From: Nitrospirota bacterium
GTDB taxonomy: Bacteria > Nitrospirota > Thermodesulfovibrionia > Thermodesulfovibrionales > Dissulfurispiraceae
DNA: 64,000 bases
Assembly: GCA_963790025.1 (NCBI GenBank)
Contig: CAWBMP010000004.1
Span: 512,001 to 576,000 of the forward strand
Reading direction: 5' to 3'
The notes under the pieces were generated by a model. That model saw nothing but the letters and a program-made list of their open reading frames with translations. It did not search any database and had not been told where the DNA came from. Positions 1 through 8,357 of the stretch are shown here, piece by piece. Both the position numbers and the translations under genes were made by a program. The number at the start of each line of letters is the position of its first letter. Within the stretch, counting starts at the first letter, position 1.

Positions 1-601
1 GAAGGTCATCCGTGCTGGTCAGAAATCCAAGAAACCACATATTGTCGGCCTCACCGGTAATCTCCAGAAGTCCCGGACATACAGCGTGAAGATCGGCCTG
101 TAGGTTGTTTACTACCCGTACTCGCTCATCGACCAAACGACGCCGGCGCCGTGATAGCCGCTTTAGAATGTCGTTGTCCCGCGGCGTTTTGCGTACCTCC
201 TGCAGCACATCCTTGGCTATCGGCAGATGATCTCGAAGCTGAAAAAGCTCCAGTCCTTTCCTTGCGTCGATTGCATCGGTCTTCGCGGCACCGGGGAATA
301 TCTCCTTGAATCGAGCAAGCTTGAGATTGTTGATATTGAAGAGGCGATAATTGCGGGCTCGAACGAGCGTGTCCAGCGGACGTGCGTAGCCGTTGAAGCC
401 CTCCATTGCTACGGCAACGGGACAACTAAACCTTTGCTCCTGCTTCTCGATGCGACAGAAGAATTGCCGGAACCCTTCAGGTTCATGCACGATTGAGAAT
501 TCATCGAGGACTTCACCGCTGGATAGGCCGATTGCAACGTTGTGACTGCGGCAGCCAATATCGACGCTTACACGCAGTTCGAGGGGATCATCTTTTTTCA
601 T
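1..601 (-). CDS. IS110-family recombinase/transposase, N-terminal 200 aa (runs off the window start)
   Basis: Manual translation from ATG 601 (RBS AAGGAG) is open to base 1: MKKDDPLELRVSVDIGCRSH...VAVAMEGFNGY...AAKTDAIDARKG...LSRRRRRLVDERVRVVNNLQADL. This has the DEDD tetrad D14/E67/D109/D112 followed by the coiled-coil typical of IS110. Absent from the ORF track because it has no stop in the window. Confidence 0.95.
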   Translation of the reverse strand, partial: MKKDDPLELRVSVDIGCRSHNVAIGLSSGEVLDEFSIVHEPEGFRQFFCRIEKQEQRFSCPVAVAMEGFNGYARPLDTLVRARNYRLFNINNLKLARFKEIFPGAAKTDAIDARKGLELFQLRDHLPIAKDVLQEVRKTPRDNDILKRLSRRRRRLVDERVRVVNNLQADLHAVCPGLLEITGEADNMWFLGFLTSTDDL

Positions 602-625
602 GTAGTCTCCTTTGCAGACAAGATT

Positions 626-817
626 ATCATCCTCAGGTCTCGTCTACTTACAGAGCCACATTTGGCACCATCCCGGTCGACCCTTTTGAGGATGATGCAG
701 ATGACGGAGGCGGCATTTCAGACTCAAGTGAGCCTGAATGAACAGGCCACTGACCCCACAAGCCACACCCCCGTTAAGCATATCTTACATGAATAAAGCT
801 GCCATAGTCATCTGCAT
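626..817 (-). ncRNA. Predicted IS110 bridge RNA (target-binding loop ~704-774, donor-binding loop 626-696)
   Basis: Stem ACGGGGGTG/CGCCTCCGT encloses an internal loop capped by hairpin AGTGGCCTG-TTCATT-CAGGCTCACT. A perfect 10-bp stem ATCATCCTCA/TGAGGATGAT encloses a second internal loop. Loop strands match the flank and the element end. Confidence 0.8.
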
Positions 818-900
818 AAATCCTATGGTAGACCCCATTGTTTCCGTTTAAACCTATATCTCCCCCTTGTCACTTGCGTTAACAGCCACAAACTTGACTA

Positions 901-1179
901 TTACTCTGCTTCGTCGAGTCCCTTATTTAAAGCGCCTTCTATAAGCGTTATATGCCGCCCGACATTTTCAGCGAGCACCGCAATTTCTTTAAAATTGCGG
1001 GGGCGTTCGTTCTCCGGGATCGCTTCAAGTGCAAGCGCGAGCAGGTGCACATTGTGATAAAGATCCTCCAGACGCCTCCGTACTGGTCCCTCACGATCCT
1101 GAAACTTCTCTATCCAATTTGCAGCTCTTTCGATCTCTGCCTCCAATTCTTCATATGTTTTTTTCTTAGCCTCCGCCAT
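901..1179 (-). CDS. Hypothetical helical protein (92 aa)
   Basis: ORF with strong RBS (GAGGAG) and protein-like charged helical composition. Confidence 0.7.
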   Translation of the reverse strand: MAEAKKKTYEELEAEIERAANWIEKFQDREGPVRRRLEDLYHNVHLLALALEAIPENERPRNFKEIAVLAENVGRHITLIEGALNKGLDEAE

Positions 1180-1205
1180 TTTAACTCTCCTCTTTTGGTG
1201 ATTTT

Positions 1206-1307
1206 TTAAATAGCCTCTTCAAGCAATTTAATGTATTCCTCTTTTTTATTCTTCTTCTTCGCTGTTTCCAATTTTAGTAATATATCATCCAGCTTTTTCT
1301 TAACCAT
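1206..1307 (-). CDS. Small hypothetical protein (33 aa, MVKKKLDDILLKLETAKKKNKKEEYIKLLEEAI)
   Basis: Manual translation; RBS GAGGGG upstream; co-oriented directly upstream of the 92-aa ORF. Confidence 0.45.
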   Translation of the reverse strand: MVKKKLDDILLKLETAKKKNKKEEYIKLLEEAI

Positions 1308-1744
1308 ATTTTTCCCCTCTATGAGCAGTAACTAAAAACCGCTCCTGTTATCACCGCGTTTGTGAGTATACCTATAATGATAGCGCTCCTCAAAGAAGAA
1401 TATCAAAGAATTCTTGATAATAATATTCTTCAGATGAGTATCCAGGCAGTTAGAGAACAGTTTCATCCGTTGCACTTCAGCGACATAAAGATAATAGATT
1501 CCATTCTGTGGGGATTTGTTTCGAAGGCAAAAGGTGGTGCTTTACTTTACCGAGATATTCAATACTTATGAGTTGAGAGGTGGACCCCATTGCGGCCGAT
1601 TTGAGATAGAAAATCCCCTGCCGTCAGCCAGCATTCGGTAAACCACATAGCGAGTGCAGAAGCAATGTTTCAAGTGGAAACCAACGCCCTTGGAGAGTTG
1701 ACTGACGTGTTGAGTTTCAGGTGCAGTAGAGCTCGGGTAAAAGT

Positions 1745-2638
1745 TCACTTCACGAGTTTCTCTAGTTCCTCAAGGCTGAACGAACTCTCATAAGTCCGTT
1801 TCATCCACCTGGCACAAAGGTTGGCGCTCAGCGGTATCCCAATGGGAGAAATCCCAAGTTTAATACAAAGCCGCATAGCTTGAGCCAGCTCCGGAATGCA
1901 AGCAATCCCGAGTGCTCCGATGTCCGGATGCTCTGCCTTTAGCCTCCCGAAGAGTTTTTTCTGGTCTATCGTTATCGATATGTAAGGCCGGATATCGTAC
2001 TTCGCAAGCAGCTTGCTGCCTAAACGTATAAAACAATCCTCGGTACAACCCATACAGACATGCTCGATATCTCCAGGGACTGAACTGCACTGTGGTCTGA
2101 AATCTCTCAGGCAATGAGGAAGGAGCGCAAACTTGTAGCTACTTTTCTTGAAAGCATTCTTGTATATTCGGTTAACCAGTTCGATCTCAAGCATGTAAAG
2201 ATGATATCTTTCCTCTCGCGTTCCGATGGTCTTGTCGAACCTCTGAGAAAATGGGATGTTCTTTAAATGCTCATTAACCCCCCGCGTATATGTGTGAAGC
2301 GCTTCATATAGTTTCTTTCGCATGAGAGCGATGAGGGCATCATCACATGCATAGGCCAACTTCTTTTTGAACCTCATTCCACCCGCTTTCTGGACGTGAA
2401 AGAGGAGGATGCGTTGATCCGGACAAAGGACTAAAAGACTTTCTACGATGGCGTGTATGGTGCTGAAGTATTGATCAGTTGATAAATCGACTCCGAATAG
2501 AGAGTAAGTCTTGCCTGAAACTGCTTTGTATGATCTATCCACTTTTTTATTATAACTCGCAGAAAGAGCCCTACGGAAGGAGCGAAACATCAGTTTCAGT
2601 CGGGAATTGATATCCTTGGCGAACAAGCAAAGGTGCAT
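1745..2638 (-). CDS. DUF116-family Cys-motif protein (true start probably further downstream)
   Basis: LLPHCLR...C...CMGC...C...GIACIPEL...GIPLSANLC motif pattern. Confidence 0.7.
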   Translation of the reverse strand: MHLCLFAKDINSRLKLMFRSFRRALSASYNKKVDRSYKAVSGKTYSLFGVDLSTDQYFSTIHAIVESLLVLCPDQRILLFHVQKAGGMRFKKKLAYACDDALIALMRKKLYEALHTYTRGVNEHLKNIPFSQRFDKTIGTREERYHLYMLEIELVNRIYKNAFKKSSYKFALLPHCLRDFRPQCSSVPGDIEHVCMGCTEDCFIRLGSKLLAKYDIRPYISITIDQKKLFGRLKAEHPDIGALGIACIPELAQAMRLCIKLGISPIGIPLSANLCARWMKRTYESSFSLEELEKLVK

Positions 2639-2921
2639 ACCCGACTACTGCTCAGGTATTGGGCGCTGAAACAGTTGCGCATTGAGGAACAAATGGAATG
2701 AAGCATTTGAGTTATCCAAAGTTCCCCATGTCAATTTGAACGTAGCTACCCGTCATTCTGGATACAGTCAGAAGCTTTATTTGGCACATAAAAAGGTTGA
2801 TAATGAAGCCGCCATAGAGTTTGGAGATAGTCAACAAGTGGGTAATTCCAAGTATAGGTTAGACATAAAAGGTTCGTAGAAGTTGCATTAATGGTTAAAA
2901 AAGTGTTATAAATCAAATATC

Positions 2922-2950
2922 GATCGGAGGTTCGAATCCTCTCGCCCGGA
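2922..2950 (+). other. tRNA 3'-end fragment (T-arm plus acceptor 3' strand, probably tRNA-Pro); putative attR
   Basis: GGAGG-TTCGAAT-CCTCT-CGCCCGG-A with no D-arm or anticodon arm upstream. Confidence 0.7.
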
Positions 2951-2964
2951 TTTTATTTCACAGA

Positions 2965-3570
2965 CTAGAAGGCGAAATCGCACTCTGCCTGTCTGCAGCT
3001 CTTTGCCGCCTTTATGACCTTTTCTGCCGAATCGAACCCGAGCGCCATCATTTCCCGCAACTGTATCTGAAAGATCTGTGCGGCAAAGAAGGCATCTGCA
3101 GCGGCATTATGCCGGTAAGACCGTTGCAGGCCATAAGCCGCCATCATACCGTCAAGGCTTAAATCCTTTTCTTCCATTTTCCGTTTTCGCCTCAGCCAGC
3201 GCTCCACCATTGCTATGTCTATAAGATCTCTTTTGAATTTCACTCCCAAGGCCTTGAAATTTGTTTTCAAAAAAGTGAAATCAAACTCGACAGTATGGCC
3301 AACGAGTATGCCATCGAGGACCTTAAGAATCCGGTCCGAGACCTCCTCAAATACCGGCGCATCCATGAGATTGTCCTTGCTTATCCCGTGGTACCTCATT
3401 GCTTTGTAGTCGTAACTTTTAGGTTTAATCAGGGTGTAAAAAGTATCCCGCACAAGGATTTTTAAATTAATAACAGGTACACAGGCGAAGGATATAATCT
3501 CATCCTTGTCGAAGTTTAATCCTGTTGTCTCGATGTCAATGGCATAAAATTGGGCAGTTTTCAAGTCCAT
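2965..3570 (-). CDS. DEDDh 3'-5' exonuclease (DNA pol III epsilon-like)
   Basis: DIETTG, GHTVEFD and HNAAADA motifs; usual partner of the adjacent DUF294 protein. Confidence 0.9.
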   Translation of the reverse strand: MDLKTAQFYAIDIETTGLNFDKDEIISFACVPVINLKILVRDTFYTLIKPKSYDYKAMRYHGISKDNLMDAPVFEEVSDRILKVLDGILVGHTVEFDFTFLKTNFKALGVKFKRDLIDIAMVERWLRRKRKMEEKDLSLDGMMAAYGLQRSYRHNAAADAFFAAQIFQIQLREMMALGFDSAEKVIKAAKSCRQAECDFAF

Positions 3571-3588
3571 GTAACGATGTCTTCCAAC

Positions 3589-5418
3589 CTATAGTTGACT
3601 ATACATTATTGTTCGACTAACGTCATATCTTTTCATCAGGAACTTCTGAAATTCAGAGACGATCTTAAGAGACTCCTTCAGTATGAGCAAATCGACCTGT
3701 GACAGTTCCTTTGAGGCGACCAGATTGTCCATAGCAGACTGATTCAATACCGTCCGTGCCTGATGTCTCAGCCTTAACCCCTGCAAAAAACCGAACGACT
3801 CGATAAGATCGTGGCACATTTGCCCGCTGATCGTTGCGTTGGCGCTCAACGCCTCCAATCTCTCTCTGGTGTTGGTCCTCGCCCATATCCCGCTGTCTAT
3901 AGCGAGGACCCTTGCGCCGTTAACAATCGGATAAATACCATAGGTCTTCAGGTCCACACCCTGACGCAGACCTAATATTCCGAATATTCCAAGTGGAGGC
4001 CTGATTTCAATCGCATCTTCAGCCATCAGCTTCAGGGCCTCGGCTTTCACTAAGTCCTTAATCGACTCCAGCAAGTCGTCGTACAGGTCTGTCTCCCCGT
4101 ATACAGGTCTCATATCGAGAAACACGGAGAGGTACCGGAGATGAAAAGGGATCGGGTCTGAAAACCACTGTTTAAAGTATTCTCTCCACACCCGCAGGGG
4201 TTGATTCCACATGCTGTTGGATGCCATGTAGTTTCCGCGGCATTTGGGAACCCCGATGACAGCCAACGTTTCACTAATATCGTCGGCTAATGTTACGGGG
4301 ATGTCTCCTTCGTAAATTATAGCGTTGTCCTGGTCGGTCCCGATGATCTCTTCTTTTCTGCCGGAACTGCCCATATGCATCCACAGGAACTGAGCAGGAG
4401 CATGTCTGCCGATAAGTATCTCAATGACCTTGGACACTACAGCGTCATGAACAGTGCATAACATCCTGGTCAGGTCATAGAAATTAGGACCCGACATCGC
4501 AATCTTTGAGACTGATACCCTGAGACTGTCAAAAACGGTTTTGAGCTCGTCTATAGAAGTTGCCCGATTGATCCTTCTGAAAAGCTTCACTATGGAGAAG
4601 GAGGGTTCCAGATGGACCTGAATGTCCTTTCTTGTGATAATACCGCAGACCTTATCGTCTTTAGTGACAACAAGGTGGTCTATTCCGGCATCGATCATTT
4701 TTGTAAAGGCATCGAATATCGTTGCCTGCGCGTCTACTGTCTTAACAGGAGATGACATGAACCCGGTAACAGGGTCCAGCCTGTCGCCCCGGATCAATAC
4801 CTTTCTCAGGTCCTCATCGGTCAGTATGCCGACCGGCTTTGCATCATTGTCCACAATGATGATCGAACTGACCGAATTCTTGTCCATCTCAGAAGCAGCG
4901 CTTAGTATCGTAATATCAGGGCTGCAAACAATAGGTTTTTTATATATAATCCTCTCAACCTCAAGAACGAATGAGGCCTCCTCAAGGATCTTCTTGTCAG
5001 ATGCAATGGTCTTGAATGACCGGAGTCTCCTGTTGATTAAAGTCGAGAAAAACAATGCAAATCTCTCATTGGCATCGAAGACAGCCTTAAATTGCCGGTA
5101 AGCTACCGAATAGCAAACGGTGTCCTCGATCGCCCTGGCAGTCGTATTCAACAGGCGTCCAAAAAGTGATATAATGCCGAATATCTCGCCTCTTGCAAGG
5201 TAGTCGACTACTGTTTCGTCATCATAGAGGCCGACAAGTCCGGAGAATATCAAATAAACGTATTCAGAGGTCTGTCCCTTTTTATAGATTGTCTTCCCTT
5301 TTTCAAACAACTCGACTTCTAATCCGGATATTATGATGTCCAGCTCATTTTCCGACAAAAAGGAAAAGGGACGTATCTTGCGTATAAACTCCTGCGGTGG
5401 AATCATCAATAATATCAT
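3589..5418 (-). CDS. cNMP-binding + CBS + DUF294 putative nucleotidyltransferase
   Basis: N-terminal cNMP domain, CBS pair, MGSSGRKEE...TDQDNA, FLDMRPVYG, DLKTYG...T.ERL. Confidence 0.9.
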   Translation of the reverse strand: MILLMIPPQEFIRKIRPFSFLSENELDIIISGLEVELFEKGKTIYKKGQTSEYVYLIFSGLVGLYDDETVVDYLARGEIFGIISLFGRLLNTTARAIEDTVCYSVAYRQFKAVFDANERFALFFSTLINRRLRSFKTIASDKKILEEASFVLEVERIIYKKPIVCSPDITILSAASEMDKNSVSSIIIVDNDAKPVGILTDEDLRKVLIRGDRLDPVTGFMSSPVKTVDAQATIFDAFTKMIDAGIDHLVVTKDDKVCGIITRKDIQVHLEPSFSIVKLFRRINRATSIDELKTVFDSLRVSVSKIAMSGPNFYDLTRMLCTVHDAVVSKVIEILIGRHAPAQFLWMHMGSSGRKEEIIGTDQDNAIIYEGDIPVTLADDISETLAVIGVPKCRGNYMASNSMWNQPLRVWREYFKQWFSDPIPFHLRYLSVFLDMRPVYGETDLYDDLLESIKDLVKAEALKLMAEDAIEIRPPLGIFGILGLRQGVDLKTYGIYPIVNGARVLAIDSGIWARTNTRERLEALSANATISGQMCHDLIESFGFLQGLRLRHQARTVLNQSAMDNLVASKELSQVDLLILKESLKIVSEFQKFLMKRYDVSRTIMYSQL

Positions 5419-5601: not shown

Positions 5602-6177
5602 ATGAAACGTTGTGAATGGGCCAATGGAAGTGATATCGAACAGTCTTATCATGATAATGAATGGGGAGTAGAAAAACATGATGACAGAACACTGTTAGAA
5701 TTCCTCATCCTGGAGGGCGCTCAGGCTGGATTGAGTTGGTCTACCATCCTTAAAAAGCGTGAAGGTTACAGAAAGGCCTTCGATAATTTCGATGCCCGGA
5801 AAATTGCCCGATACTCGGAGAAGAAGATTTCCATGTTGCTCGCCAATCCTGAGATCATAAGAAACAGGCTCAAAATCAACTCGACTATCACCAACGCCAG
5901 GGCATTCCTGAATGTACAGAATGAATTTGGAAGCTTCGATAAATACATTTGGAGATTCGTGAATGGGAAACCCATCAGGAATTCATGGAAAAACATATCG
6001 GATATCCCCTCCAGAACCCCTGAGTCGGATGCCATGAGTAAGGATTTGAAGAAAAGAGGTTTCAAATTCGTCGGTGCGACAATTTGTTATGCGTTCATGC
6101 AGGCAGTGGGCATGATAAACGATCATGTTGTGGGCTGCTTCAGATACAAAGATAGAGGTGGAGTGAAGCATATTTAA
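5602..6177 (+). CDS. tag: DNA-3-methyladenine glycosylase I
   Basis: RCEWA, YHDNEWG, LEGAQAGLSW, IIRNRLKI, FKFVG...QAVGMINDH. Confidence 0.95.
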   Translation: MKRCEWANGSDIEQSYHDNEWGVEKHDDRTLLEFLILEGAQAGLSWSTILKKREGYRKAFDNFDARKIARYSEKKISMLLANPEIIRNRLKINSTITNARAFLNVQNEFGSFDKYIWRFVNGKPIRNSWKNISDIPSRTPESDAMSKDLKKRGFKFVGATICYAFMQAVGMINDHVVGCFRYKDRGGVKHI

Positions 6178-6377
6178 CATATATGGACTTTTTCAGAGTA
6201 TCATTTTGACCGGCATATTTAGACAGGAAATTCTTGCACTTGGCAATTGACTTCCTCCAAAAATCCGCTCAATGGCTGCGGCGCTACGGGCTGTGACTTT
6301 GCACTTACGAACAAACACTCCTGCTAATCCGAATCAGTATCAAGAACGTGAGCACAAGTTCATGTATATGCAAAAAC

Positions 6378-7100
6378 TTATATTTTATGAGACTGTTTTT
6401 TCAGCACTTTTAATCCATAGGGACAGACTGCTGAGCAAATTCCGCAGTTATGCCCTTTGTGATACTGAAAATAGTGTTCCTTTTTCCATTGATCACATGC
6501 CAATACGTCTAATATCTCTTCTCGTGGCAATCCCGGATACCATGTGTTTCCTTTCAATGCTCTTGCAGGGCAGGCTTCCACGCAGCGCCTACAACGACCA
6601 CAGAAGTTTCGCTCCATCCGTAACCCACATGGAAGCTCAATGTCGGTGAAAACAGTTCCCAGTCGAATCCATGATCCGAACTGGCGCGTGATAAGTTGAC
6701 AATGACGACCTATCCACCCCAACCCTGCTCTAGTTGCTGCAGTTTTGTGGGGAAAGTCTCCTCTGATATTAACAGTATCGGTACGAGTCGAGACCGCCAG
6801 CGGTTTGGATCGAAAACCTCTGACTTTGATTTCGGCTGCTAATGCGATTGATAATTCATTGATATGACTGTTAACTCTGGCATACTCATTAGCGTATGCT
6901 TGGTTAGGCGCGTTCTGGATACTGACCATTATTTGCGGGTTCATTGGAATTGCCCATGAAAGAGCGAAAGGAAATCTTTGCCCTGTTTCATCCTGAGGTG
7001 TGGAAATATCCCTAAGATCTGCTGCACCCCATAGCGTAATCTTGCGTACTTCCATCCAGTCAGTAAGCCAGATAGGAGCAATTATTGACGGATCAGACAA
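6378..7100 (-). CDS. Epoxyqueuosine reductase-like 4Fe-4S (cobalamin-type) protein
   Basis: HKTAATRAGLGWIG, CGRCRRCVEACP, CGICSAVCPYG. Confidence 0.75.
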   Translation of the reverse strand: MSDPSIIAPIWLTDWMEVRKITLWGAADLRDISTPQDETGQRFPFALSWAIPMNPQIMVSIQNAPNQAYANEYARVNSHINELSIALAAEIKVRGFRSKPLAVSTRTDTVNIRGDFPHKTAATRAGLGWIGRHCQLITRQFGSWIRLGTVFTDIELPCGLRMERNFCGRCRRCVEACPARALKGNTWYPGLPREEILDVLACDQWKKEHYFQYHKGHNCGICSAVCPYGLKVLKKQSHKI

Positions 7101-7117
7101 TTCATGCCTCGTATTTG

Positions 7118-7405
7118 TTAATCATGGGTCTCCTCTTGAGAAGCAGTGCTTCTGATAATGCTTTCCTCAAGTTGTTTTACTCTTTTTTTCTGCTCCCGTA
7201 AATCAGAACTTTTTCTTAATAGCGAAGGAATAGATATGAGCATGCCGGCGAGCAAACCTAAAGTAAACACTACGACCAAAATCAAAGCGAGAGAGCCATT
7301 ATAATGGAACGCAAGAAAGCTAACTGTTACAATAGCTGAATTTTGAACTGAAAAAAGAACAATTGCGATTGCAATTAAAAGTGCGAGAACAATAAAAAAC
7401 AGCAT
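7118..7405 (-). CDS. LapA/DUF1049-family small membrane protein
   Basis: TM helix, FSVQN...V.V.F, second TM helix, coiled-coil tail. Confidence 0.8.
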   Translation of the reverse strand: MLFFIVLALLIAIAIVLFSVQNSAIVTVSFLAFHYNGSLALILVVVFTLGLLAGMLISIPSLLRKSSDLREQKKRVKQLEESIIRSTASQEETHD

Positions 7406-7550
7406 AACCTCATCCCAACAGAGTTTTAGCAATTATATCACAAATAAGAATGCGGTCATATCAAAATTACCACTTGTCACATGCAAAGTTATAACAGATT
7501 CGGTTCTTGGGGGCTACAGGAAGCAATCGTGCTTATGATGTTGCGCTCTC

Positions 7551-8357
7551 TTAAGCGAGAAGATTGAGTATCTGACCGTTTTGCTGGTTTGCCTGATTCA
7601 GGACGTAAATCGATGCTTGCAGCCTCACTTTGTCTGCCATCTGCTTGGATGCCTCGGATGCAAGATCGGCGTCGCTTATCTGCGAATAGGCGCTTGCGGT
7701 GTTTACGGCACTATTTGAGAGGCTTTCAGCTGTCGAGCTGAGTCCGTTCTCAGCAGCCCCTATGTTGGACTGTTGTGATGAAATTGCATCTATTGCGTTT
7801 GCCACGGAGGAGATCGCCGATTCTGACTGTGCCTGCGTCTCCGTACCGGCGCCTGACAAGCCCAGGTTTCCGTTGGTGATGTTTCCCGTTGGCACGGTGC
7901 TCTGGTCTCCCGCACCGGTTCCCGACTGGATGCCTATCGATGATGCGCTTCCGTCCAGGATTGAGATTCCGTTAAATGAAGTATTCTGTGCAATATCGCC
8001 AACCGCAGCGTTCAGCTGCTGGAATTGGGTGTCGATGTCGTTCAAGTCGGAGGACGTAAGGATGCCGTCTCCCCCCTCCACCGCCAGAGTGCTCATGGCC
8101 TGCAGGTCATTGCTGGCGTCCGACATTCCTCCAGATGCAGTCTCCAGCATATTCATCCCGTCTGCAACGTTGTTTTCCGCCTGCTGGCTGCCGTTAAGTT
8201 GTGATAAGAGACTTTGTGCTATGGAATAGTCGGCCGAGTTGTCTGAGGCATCGTTGAGCTGGCTGCCAGTGCAAAGTCTTTGAAGAGGCTGAGTAAGCAG
8301 ATTGTAGGCGTTGCTTACAGAATTCACTGAATCACCGTTATTTGTAATGCTGATCAT
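7551..8357 (-). CDS. Short flagellin-like protein (268 aa)
   Basis: Flagellin N-helix (LQRLCTG..LN.ASD..A; NTSFNG..ILDG) and C-helix (ISDADLA.E...L.QANQ....IL.LL). Confidence 0.85.
   Translation of the reverse strand: MISITNNGDSVNSVSNAYNLLTQPLQRLCTGSQLNDASDNSADYSIAQSLLSQLNGSQQAENNVADGMNMLETASGGMSDASNDLQAMSTLAVEGGDGILTSSDLNDIDTQFQQLNAAVGDIAQNTSFNGISILDGSASSIGIQSGTGAGDQSTVPTGNITNGNLGLSGAGTETQAQSESAISSVANAIDAISSQQSNIGAAENGLSSTAESLSNSAVNTASAYSQISDADLASEASKQMADKVRLQASIYVLNQANQQNGQILNLLA

Follow-up and report, generated by a model that had tools for sequence, protein, structure and literature searches.

Among described insertion sequences with a guide RNA, IS621 of E. coli, a member of the IS110 group, carries the RNA upstream of a DEDD recombinase, in its long left end, and the RNA forms two modules, each made of a stem, an internal loop and a hairpin. 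Its sites span 14 nt, with positions 1–7 to the left of a dinucleotide core (positions 8–9) and positions 10–14 to the right; the left guides pair with the bottom strand, and hence read like the top strand, the right guides pair with the top strand, and, once strands have been exchanged, positions 7–6 of the other DNA pair with two handshake bases that follow each right guide on its 3′ side (Hiraizumi et al. 2024, PMC11208158). In the IS621 model the promoter is completed in the circular form, and thousands of such bridge RNAs have been predicted with covariance models (Durrant et al. 2024, PMC11208160). The IS1111 group (seekRNA systems, IS4321/IS5075) shares the DEDD recombinase family and RNA-guided site choice (PMC11208160). 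The present locus lies in a 64,000-nt stretch of DNA from a Nitrospirota bacterium (contig CAWBMP010000004.1; the whole stretch is called here the window). Its positions 602–830, minus strand, hold the left end of an IS110-type insertion sequence, the remainder of which lies beyond the window's left edge. This segment is very probably, from its sequence and that of its relatives, the non-coding left end of an IS110-group element of ∼1.46 kb, encoding a bridge RNA of ∼190–200 nt.

The non-coding left end measures 228 nt (830–603) and lies upstream of the recombinase open reading frame (ORF), of which the window holds the first part:

2–601, minus strand: N-terminal 200 aa of an IS110 DEDD (RuvC-like) recombinase; ATG at 601–599, with the ORF running off the window's left edge
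607–613, minus strand: Shine–Dalgarno-like AAAGGAG, 5 nt 5′ of the recombinase ATG; read from the sequence, its role putative

The recombinase fragment matches PF01548 (DEDD_Tnp_IS110) with an E-value of 2.6e-21 and 76.4 bits (cut-off 29). Against NF033542, the ‘IS110 family RNA-guided transposase’, the 200-aa fragment scores 64.7 bits and a full-length relative of 399 aa (L001) scores 159.3 bits (cut-off 140). Residues D14, E67, D109 and D112 are invariant in the alignments A1 and A3 and, by their likeness to D11/E60/D102/D105 of IS621 (PMC11208158), constitute a candidate DEDD tetrad. In relatives, the C-terminal Tnp domain PF02371 is present (precomputed for P0004, P0006 and others), with an invariant Ser322-Gly323.

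The comparisons that follow rest on relatives found by a protein search (674 at E ≤0.001 among 842 candidates) and by a genome scan, in which 326 stretches matched and 257 encode relatives. The best 80 of these 257 loci were used (L001–L080); they do not include the window's own genome, and the closest, L001, has a recombinase 93% identical. By blastn, 77 of the 80 loci retain a recognizable form of the non-coding stretch, and in L001 the RNA region is 96% identical. Anchors of the RNA motif were found in 76 of the 80 (none in L025, L032, L041 and L069), and L052, which was mis-anchored, was left out of later counts. An alignment of 45 sequences was built from the window and 44 non-redundant relatives (<95% similar, kept from 61 with a leader of normal length). 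Among relatives, the element is 1436–1808 nt long, and its right end after the stop codon takes 19–78 nt (21 relatives with ORFs of 397–429 aa, alignment A3). The class proposed in an initial annotation, an IS110 left-end bridge RNA with two stem/internal-loop/hairpin modules, agrees with the PF01548 match, with this conservation and with the covarying helices described below.

The element boundaries are given by same-genome copies (e.g. L013/15/26, L021/22/24, L075–79 and L034/35), which are 99–100% identical over 1.44–1.62 kb and diverge sharply on both sides. In relatives, the left junction reads flank-(G)GGG-TC|TACCAT(A/C)GGA and the right junction ...CTTGAAAATTCCAGCGGGATGT-TC|AG..., with TC at both ends (...GGGG-TC-TACC on the left and ...GATGT-TC-AG on the right); the window itself shows the left TC (832–831) alone. 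TC ends all 70 of the 70 unique left flanks. The initial annotation had placed the boundary at 830/831 and the core at TC, which is what the same-genome copies read (flank-GGGG-TC|TACCAT). Two junction strings stand in the window on the minus strand, TGGGGTC at 837–831 and GTCTAC at 833–828, the latter spanning the boundary. All 62 readable right ends finish GGGAT(G/A)(T/A/G)-TC. Only ATG...CAT flanks the donor core, and no long terminal or subterminal inverted repeats were seen at the ends. The features at the junctions are as follows:

833–839, minus strand: left target flank, site positions 1–7, AATGGGG; host DNA outside the element, same-genome copies diverging upstream of (G)TC|TACC
831–832, minus strand: core dinucleotide TC, left copy, site positions 8–9; in relatives TC stands at both element ends
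825–830, minus strand: first 6 nt of the element, TACCAT; right-donor positions 10–15 and candidate −10 hexamer, from the hexamer counts in 53 pairs of right end (RE) and left end (LE)
Last nine bases of the right end, GGGATGTTC: 55 of 62 loci
Last nine bases of the right end, GGGATGATC: 3 of 62 loci
Last nine bases of the right end, GGGATATTC: 3 of 62 loci
Last nine bases of the right end, GGGATGGTC: 1 of 62 loci

The RNA structure is conserved over the family, and it is chiefly the relatives that show it to be more than chance. The strings and stems listed in the initial annotation are all present on the minus strand: in module 1, ACGGGGGTG (774–766) and CGCCTCCGT (712–704), the left loop strand TGTGGGGTC (760–752), the hairpin (751–727) and the right loop strand TGAGTCTGA (726–718); in module 2, a perfect 10-bp stem (696–687/635–626), AAAGGGTC (686–679) and GTAGAC (647–642). 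RNAfold reproduces both modules, at −89.4 kcal/mol for 239 nt (shuffle mean −71.8, z −3.90) and −63.8 kcal/mol for 166 nt (shuffle mean −51.2, z −3.32), and in neither case is any of 200 shuffles as good. From the 45-sequence alignment, RNAalifold independently predicts the target stem and hairpin, the donor outer stem, a 4-bp inner helix and the donor hairpin. The structure that was counted comprises 39 pairs, namely the RNAalifold helices and a long-range helix (815–810/702–697), minus guide–guide pairs. In the 45 sequences, 95.7% of cells pair, versus 37–48% with slid partners, and 23 pairs show changes on both sides, versus 7–10 for slid partners; none of 500 shuffles reaches any of the five observed structure measures. 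The helices of the target-binding loop (TBL) and the donor-binding loop (DBL) are:

810–815, minus strand: 5′ strand of the long-range helix, GCAGAT, enclosing the target-binding module; 5 of 6 pairs changed on both sides, 89.6% of cells pair (helix 1)
697–702, minus strand: 3′ strand of the long-range helix, ATCTGC, between the two modules; pairs with 815–810 (helix 1)
762–774, minus strand: 5′ strand of the TBL stem; 774–767/711–704 and 764–762/714–712, 12 pairs, 6 changed on both sides, 99.1% paired (helix 2)
704–714, minus strand: 3′ strand of the TBL stem, from RNAalifold and covariation
727–751, minus strand: TBL distal hairpin; 8 pairs, 7 changed on both sides (helix 3)
687–696, minus strand: 5′ strand of the DBL outer stem; 10 bp with 635–626 in this copy
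626–635, minus strand: 3′ strand of the DBL outer stem, from RNAalifold and covariation
679–686, minus strand: AAAGGGTC, a bulge (686–683) and the 5′ strand GGTC (682–679) of the inner DBL helix, from covariation
636–639, minus strand: 3′ strand of the inner DBL helix, GACC; pairs with 682–679 (helix 5)
655–666, minus strand: DBL distal hairpin, GCC ... GGC; 3 pairs, 100% paired, 1 changed on both sides (helix 6)

Within the DBL outer stem, only 695–690/632–627 is conserved family-wide (6 pairs, 100% paired, 2 changed on both sides; helix 4). In the inner DBL helix, pairs 165/228 and 167/226 changed on both sides 6 and 2 times, giving for example GGCC/GGCC in L011 and AGCC/GGCT in L029. The DBL distal hairpin is lengthened in some relatives by self-complementary inserts. 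The helix between leader and linker puts the target module within a multi-helix junction; no description of such an arrangement appears in the parts of the IS621 papers that were covered (PMC11208158 and PMC11208160).

The guides were assigned according to the layout of IS621 (PMC11208158), and in the target loop these are:

752–760, minus strand: left target guide (LTG), TGTGGGGTC, in the sense of site positions 1–9, which would pair with the bottom strand; positions 3–9 equal the flank TGGGGTC
718–724, minus strand: AGTCTGA, the right target guide (RTG), complement of the top strand from position 14 to position 8 (TC-AGACT), from guide–flank covariation
716–717, minus strand: candidate TBL handshake bases AA; by analogy with IS621 (PMC11208158), A717 would find its partner, T, at donor position 7 once the strands are exchanged

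In a test anchored on the conserved GA before AATGCC, with 57 unique events and 34 distinct guides, the RTG forms with positions 10–14 of its own right flank 3.88 of 5 Watson–Crick pairs, versus 2.73 when shuffled, and none of 5000 shuffles reaches the observed value. Past position 14 own and foreign flanks behave alike, and no RTG signal is seen; as in IS621, the site thus delimited is of 14 nt (7 + 2 + 5). In an unbiased grid of each loop position against each flank position, the expected antidiagonal holds five of the six strongest complementary associations (z 3.7–5.7). The RTG of L001 is identical to that of the window, and its right flank reads TC|AGACT, in line with the proposal of the initial annotation that the module 1 right strand is complementary to a right flank AGAC. 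The target site in the window would be about (TG)TGGGG-TC-AGACT. The base directly 3′ of the RTG is A in 62 of 62 readable loci, and donor position 7 is T in 58 of the 62.

For the LTG, the equivalence of the module 1 left strand and the left flank, also noticed initially, holds over 7 contiguous nt (837–831), i.e. 7 of the 9 guide bases match the left flank in the window. The guide is nearly invariant in the family (xxxGGGGTC), and among the 70 unique left flanks GGGGTC is perfect in 39, matched at 5 of 6 bases in 25 and at 4 of 6 in 6. Two loci show a joint change of guide and flank, to GGTGTC in L062 and to AGCGGTC in L063, and a same-sense diagonal is present in the loop–flank grid (z 4.2 and 3.6).

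The donor loop would read the element's own ends, and its candidate guides are the following:

643–647, minus strand: right donor guide (RDG), GTAGA, complementary to TC-TAC, i.e. to the core and the first 3 nt of the element, from guide–end covariation
641–642, minus strand: CG, candidate handshake bases of the DBL, with a role assigned by analogy with IS621 (PMC11208158); the complement of C642 stands at target position 7 (G) and not at donor position 7 (T)
667–674, minus strand: candidate left donor guide (LDG), GGGATGGT; equals donor positions 1–8 of relatives (GGGATGTT) save for a conserved mismatch at position 7

Across 73 loci, a left end beginning TAC goes with G in the RDG (66 loci) and one beginning TAT with A (7 loci), with no exception. 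This signal, between nucleotide 647 and position 12, is the strongest association found (z 29.3, plain mutual information). Since plain mutual information between RNA columns and element-internal positions is dominated by shared ancestry, it was used for this pair alone, the anchored grid serving otherwise; the seven TAT/A loci probably belong to one or two lineages and hence stand for one or two events, not seven. C642 is invariant, and 72 of 73 loci have G at target position 7. As initially noted, GTAGAC is GTCTAC of the junction in reverse complement; the guide proper is better confined to GTAGA, with the final C read as a handshake base. The LDG candidate adjoins the inner hairpin on the 5′ side of the DBL internal loop, as in IS621 (PMC11208158), and in 51 of 62 loci an LDG region GGGATGGTG occurs with the right end GGGATGTTC. 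Both partners of this proposed pairing are nearly invariant. In IS621, donor position 7 is unusually tolerant of mismatches (Durrant et al., PMC11208160).

A promoter-like arrangement spans the two ends. In 53 distinct RE/LE pairs, the RE hexamer is TTGAAA in 39 and TTGNNA in all 53, and it would lie exactly 17 nt from the first LE hexamer, which is TACCAT in 45, TATCAT in 7 and TACCTT in 1. The change from TAC to TAT that is mirrored in the RDG turns TACCAT into TATCAT, a better −10 hexamer. No complete sigma-70-like promoter was found in the integrated copy between window positions 560 and 1000. By analogy with IS621, and from the hexamers themselves, we infer that the promoter is completed only in the circular form.

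Collectively, these elements are consistent with a mechanism modelled on IS621. The element would be excised as a circle, in which the RE TTGAAA joined to the LE TACCAT at 17-nt spacing would act as a promoter transcribing the RNA. The RNA would fold into a loop for target binding and one for donor binding, each presumed to hold one recombinase dimer. In the target loop, 760–752 (TGTGGGGTC) would pair with the bottom strand at target positions 1–9; in the donor loop, 674–667 (GGGATGGT) would pair with the last bases of the right end (GGGATGT-T) and 647–643 (GTAGA) with TC-TAC of the left end. After exchange of the top strands, A717 and C642 may make the handshake by pairing with position 7 of the other DNA, and recombination would take place at the shared TC.

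Several points weigh against this interpretation. For this copy, the right flank AGACT and the right end GGGATGT-TC are predictions from relatives, the window ending before them, and the recombinase looks truncated. Positions 1–2 of the LTG mismatch the flank of this copy, and LTG covariation is weak, 102 of 5000 shuffles reaching the observed identity, because the guide is nearly invariant. In L002, L056 and L057 the RTG is that of the window, yet the right flank gives only a 2 of 5 Watson–Crick match (counted by eye); these insertions may have been guided mainly by the left half-site, and ‘half-match’ insertions are described for IS621 in a 2026 preprint (10.64898/2026.08.31.748434). The LDG relies on identity and position: 7 of 9 bases agree, and the mismatches, at positions 7 and 9, are conserved. 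Relatedness among the sequences persists in the shuffle controls; the slid controls of the structure test do remove it, and agree. A single-sequence search of the PDB with the recombinase (phmmer) returned nothing, IS621 included. Finally, Rfam 15 gave no match in window positions 1–3000 at E-values up to 10; the presence of a bridge-RNA model in Rfam was not established, and this result weighs neither way.

The alternative that survives best concerns the state of this copy, and not the nature of the RNA. The element may be a dead relic whose RNA gene is intact, immobile alone, with a bridge RNA that is idle or served by the recombinase of another copy; this is given a chance slightly under one half. 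The database protein of the window, P0001 (243 aa), tracks its relatives to about residue 213 and then departs from them; its last ∼30 residues correspond to the +1 frame of L001, with the same stop in that frame. The recombinase gene thus appears frameshifted just left of the window, by a one-base frame change near codon 214, or mis-assembled there. P0001 is without the C-terminal domain bearing the invariant Ser-Gly, and PF02371, detected in relatives, is not detected in this copy. Because of the apparent frameshift after about codon 213, this copy is probably not autonomous, and the 64-kb window holds no second copy of the RNA hairpin or of a right end. On the other side, the frameshift, located beyond the window, might stem from faulty assembly or sequencing, and every family-invariant RNA position is kept in this copy, so that any decay would be recent. 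Shortened recombinase frames also occur in otherwise full-length relatives (L002 291 aa, L031 234, L046 246, L056 280, L048 334 and L072 352), and therefore broken copies are common either in the clade or in these assemblies.

Much less probable is that the segment acts as a leader or regulatory RNA for recombinase expression, through sequestration of the ribosome-binding site or as an antisense target, with no guide function and incidental matches. Its position directly upstream of the recombinase start codon, with the Shine–Dalgarno-like AAAGGAG at 613–607, would suit such a role. For a leader RNA no covariation with host DNA beyond the element would be expected, yet right-flank positions 10–14 are tracked by the right loop strand; in addition, all 7 loci with TAC changed to TAT at the element start have G changed to A in the loop, and the architecture is that of the experimentally solved IS621 RNA (PMC11208158).

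Least tenable, and hardly to be credited, is the layout first drawn for module 2, with AAAGGGTC (686–679) as LDG and a right end ...AAAGGG-TC: the string is present, ends in TC like the LTG and faces a right end that is out of view in this copy, but relatives read ...GCGGGATGT-TC, all 62 readable right ends finishing as given above, including that of L001 with its nearly identical RNA region, which refutes the predicted right end on the terms set by the initial annotation itself; the segment takes several forms in relatives (AAAGGGTC, GGTGTGTC, GTAGCGTC, GTCAAGCC and others) against a constant right end; its last four bases, GGTC, pair with GACC (639–636) through compensatory changes; and in the grid its association with the flanks follows no diagonal (maximum z 2.9, scattered). 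From the sequences, GGGATGGT (674–667) is the better candidate for the LDG. The remark that both left strands end in TC is correct for the strings and misleading for the guides, the second TC being part of a helix. Of the four guides initially read, the LTG, RTG and RDG are retained and the LDG is replaced.

As a bridge RNA element, the locus compares with three described systems. It is IS621-like in a long, RNA-encoding left end that precedes a DEDD recombinase, in its two modules, in 5′ loop strands that carry the sense of the left half-sites and 3′ strands complementary to the core and right half-sites, in one or two bases 3′ of the right guides as handshake candidates, in a donor loop more conserved than the target loop with a mismatch tolerated at donor position 7, and in a candidate −35 element in the right end with a candidate −10 in the left end. 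Kinship of the proteins is at profile level: a profile of 21 full-length relatives matches IS621 (8wt6) at an E-value of 4.4e-9, over the C-terminal domain only. At 399 aa the recombinase exceeds the IS621 chain (328 aa), and TC replaces CT as the core, the second core base T being almost invariant among IS621 relatives (PMC11208158). Unlike in IS621, helix 1, formed here by the 5′ leader and the inter-module linker, surrounds the target loop, the donor module contains an extra 4-bp helix (helix 5), and the mismatch between left guide and donor at position 7 is conserved. The RDG of IS621 has an upstream discontinuous part, whereas GTAGA is contiguous; UG of CTCTG, pairing with positions 13–14, may form such a part here.

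The best PDB match of the clade profile is the ISCro4 transposase (9t56), with an E-value of 3.2e-9 over the C-terminal Tnp domain; its N-terminal domain aligns marginally (3.4 bits), and the comparison is by protein alone. In the IS1111 group, the RNA is in a long right end with 7–17-bp subterminal inverted repeats (PMC11208160), in contrast with the 228-nt left end and the right end of 19–78 nt found here. Membership in that group was considered and rejected, since here the left end holds the RNA, the right end is short and no such inverted repeats were seen at the ends.

The N-terminal DEDD domain and the long left and short right ends place the element in the IS110 group, and it would work like IS621; it is an ordinary, though well-resolved, further example of bridge RNA elements. 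A more ambitious view would see here an undescribed, deep-branching clade of bridge recombinases, spread over uncultured Nitrospirota, Desulfobacterota-like bacteria, Gamma- and Betaproteobacteria, Acidobacteriota and others, and departing from IS621 in its TC core, the LDG mismatch at position 7, the extra donor helix and the long-range leader helix, with 15–17-nt duplications in left flanks (6 of 70) as a possible footprint of a side reaction of bridge recombination. This view is less likely than not. A search for the donor-loop motifs in the supplements of Durrant et al. (PMC11208160), as far as these were covered and without a literature search by clade name, gave no match and one unrelated hit. 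A tblastn search of plasmids with the L001 recombinase returned 823 records, all below 60% identity (12 are listed at 26–27%), and no close annotated relative; blastn of window positions 1–900 against plasmids gave no match.

Bridge recombinases are under development as programmable DNA insertion tools, and a natural orthologue adds a candidate with different site rules whenever its four guides, its core and its ends are legible in the sequence. The present clade offers a TC core and a compact element of 1.46 kb, and 57–70 unique natural insertions already map the specified site positions (3/4–9 and 10–14). In genome scanning, a bridge RNA can be recognized by eye; the donor guides are assignable only with the other element end or with relatives in hand.

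The natural insertion sites have features of their own. Six of the 70 unique insertions (L019, L022, L039, L040, L045 and L072) have the final 10 nt of their left flank, which end GGGGTC, in tandem repeat, compared with 52 of 14019 random positions in the same loci. The period is 15–17 nt (33 in L019), and L072 has three copies. Less exact or shorter repeats are seen by eye in L003, L034, L047 and L061, and none in the left flank of the window. Right flanks share a motif beyond the guide-specified positions (positions 15–22), with T at position 15 in 47 of 57 events, often followed by TG.ATT or TTGAC, and a few (L029, L065, L036, L018, L008 and L052) contain long palindromes with a far arm ending GACCC(C). 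This motif and these palindromes suggest that the natural targets belong to a conserved repeat or to the end of a mobile element. The idea that right flanks are generally long, REP-like palindromes was discarded, just a few being so, with the reverse complement of the left 8-mer present in 4 of 58 right flanks. In the 64-kb window, target-like sites number 3, against 3.98 expected, i.e. chance level.

Some relatives have undergone internal changes. The L077 copy (about 6086–8108) is interrupted, its last ∼150 nt lying ∼2 kb further right than in L075, L076, L078 and L079, so something inserted into it. Internal indels distinguish L064 from L070 (∼86 nt) and L072 from L073 (∼105 nt).

The host genes upstream of the insertion (window 901–5418, minus strand) begin with a 92-aa ORF without a Pfam match, which ends ∼70 nt before the element. 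Beyond it are genes for a DUF116 protein, an RNase T-type exonuclease and a cNMP-binding/CBS/DUF294 nucleotidyltransferase-like protein. The insertion site is intergenic and lies 3′ of the small gene.

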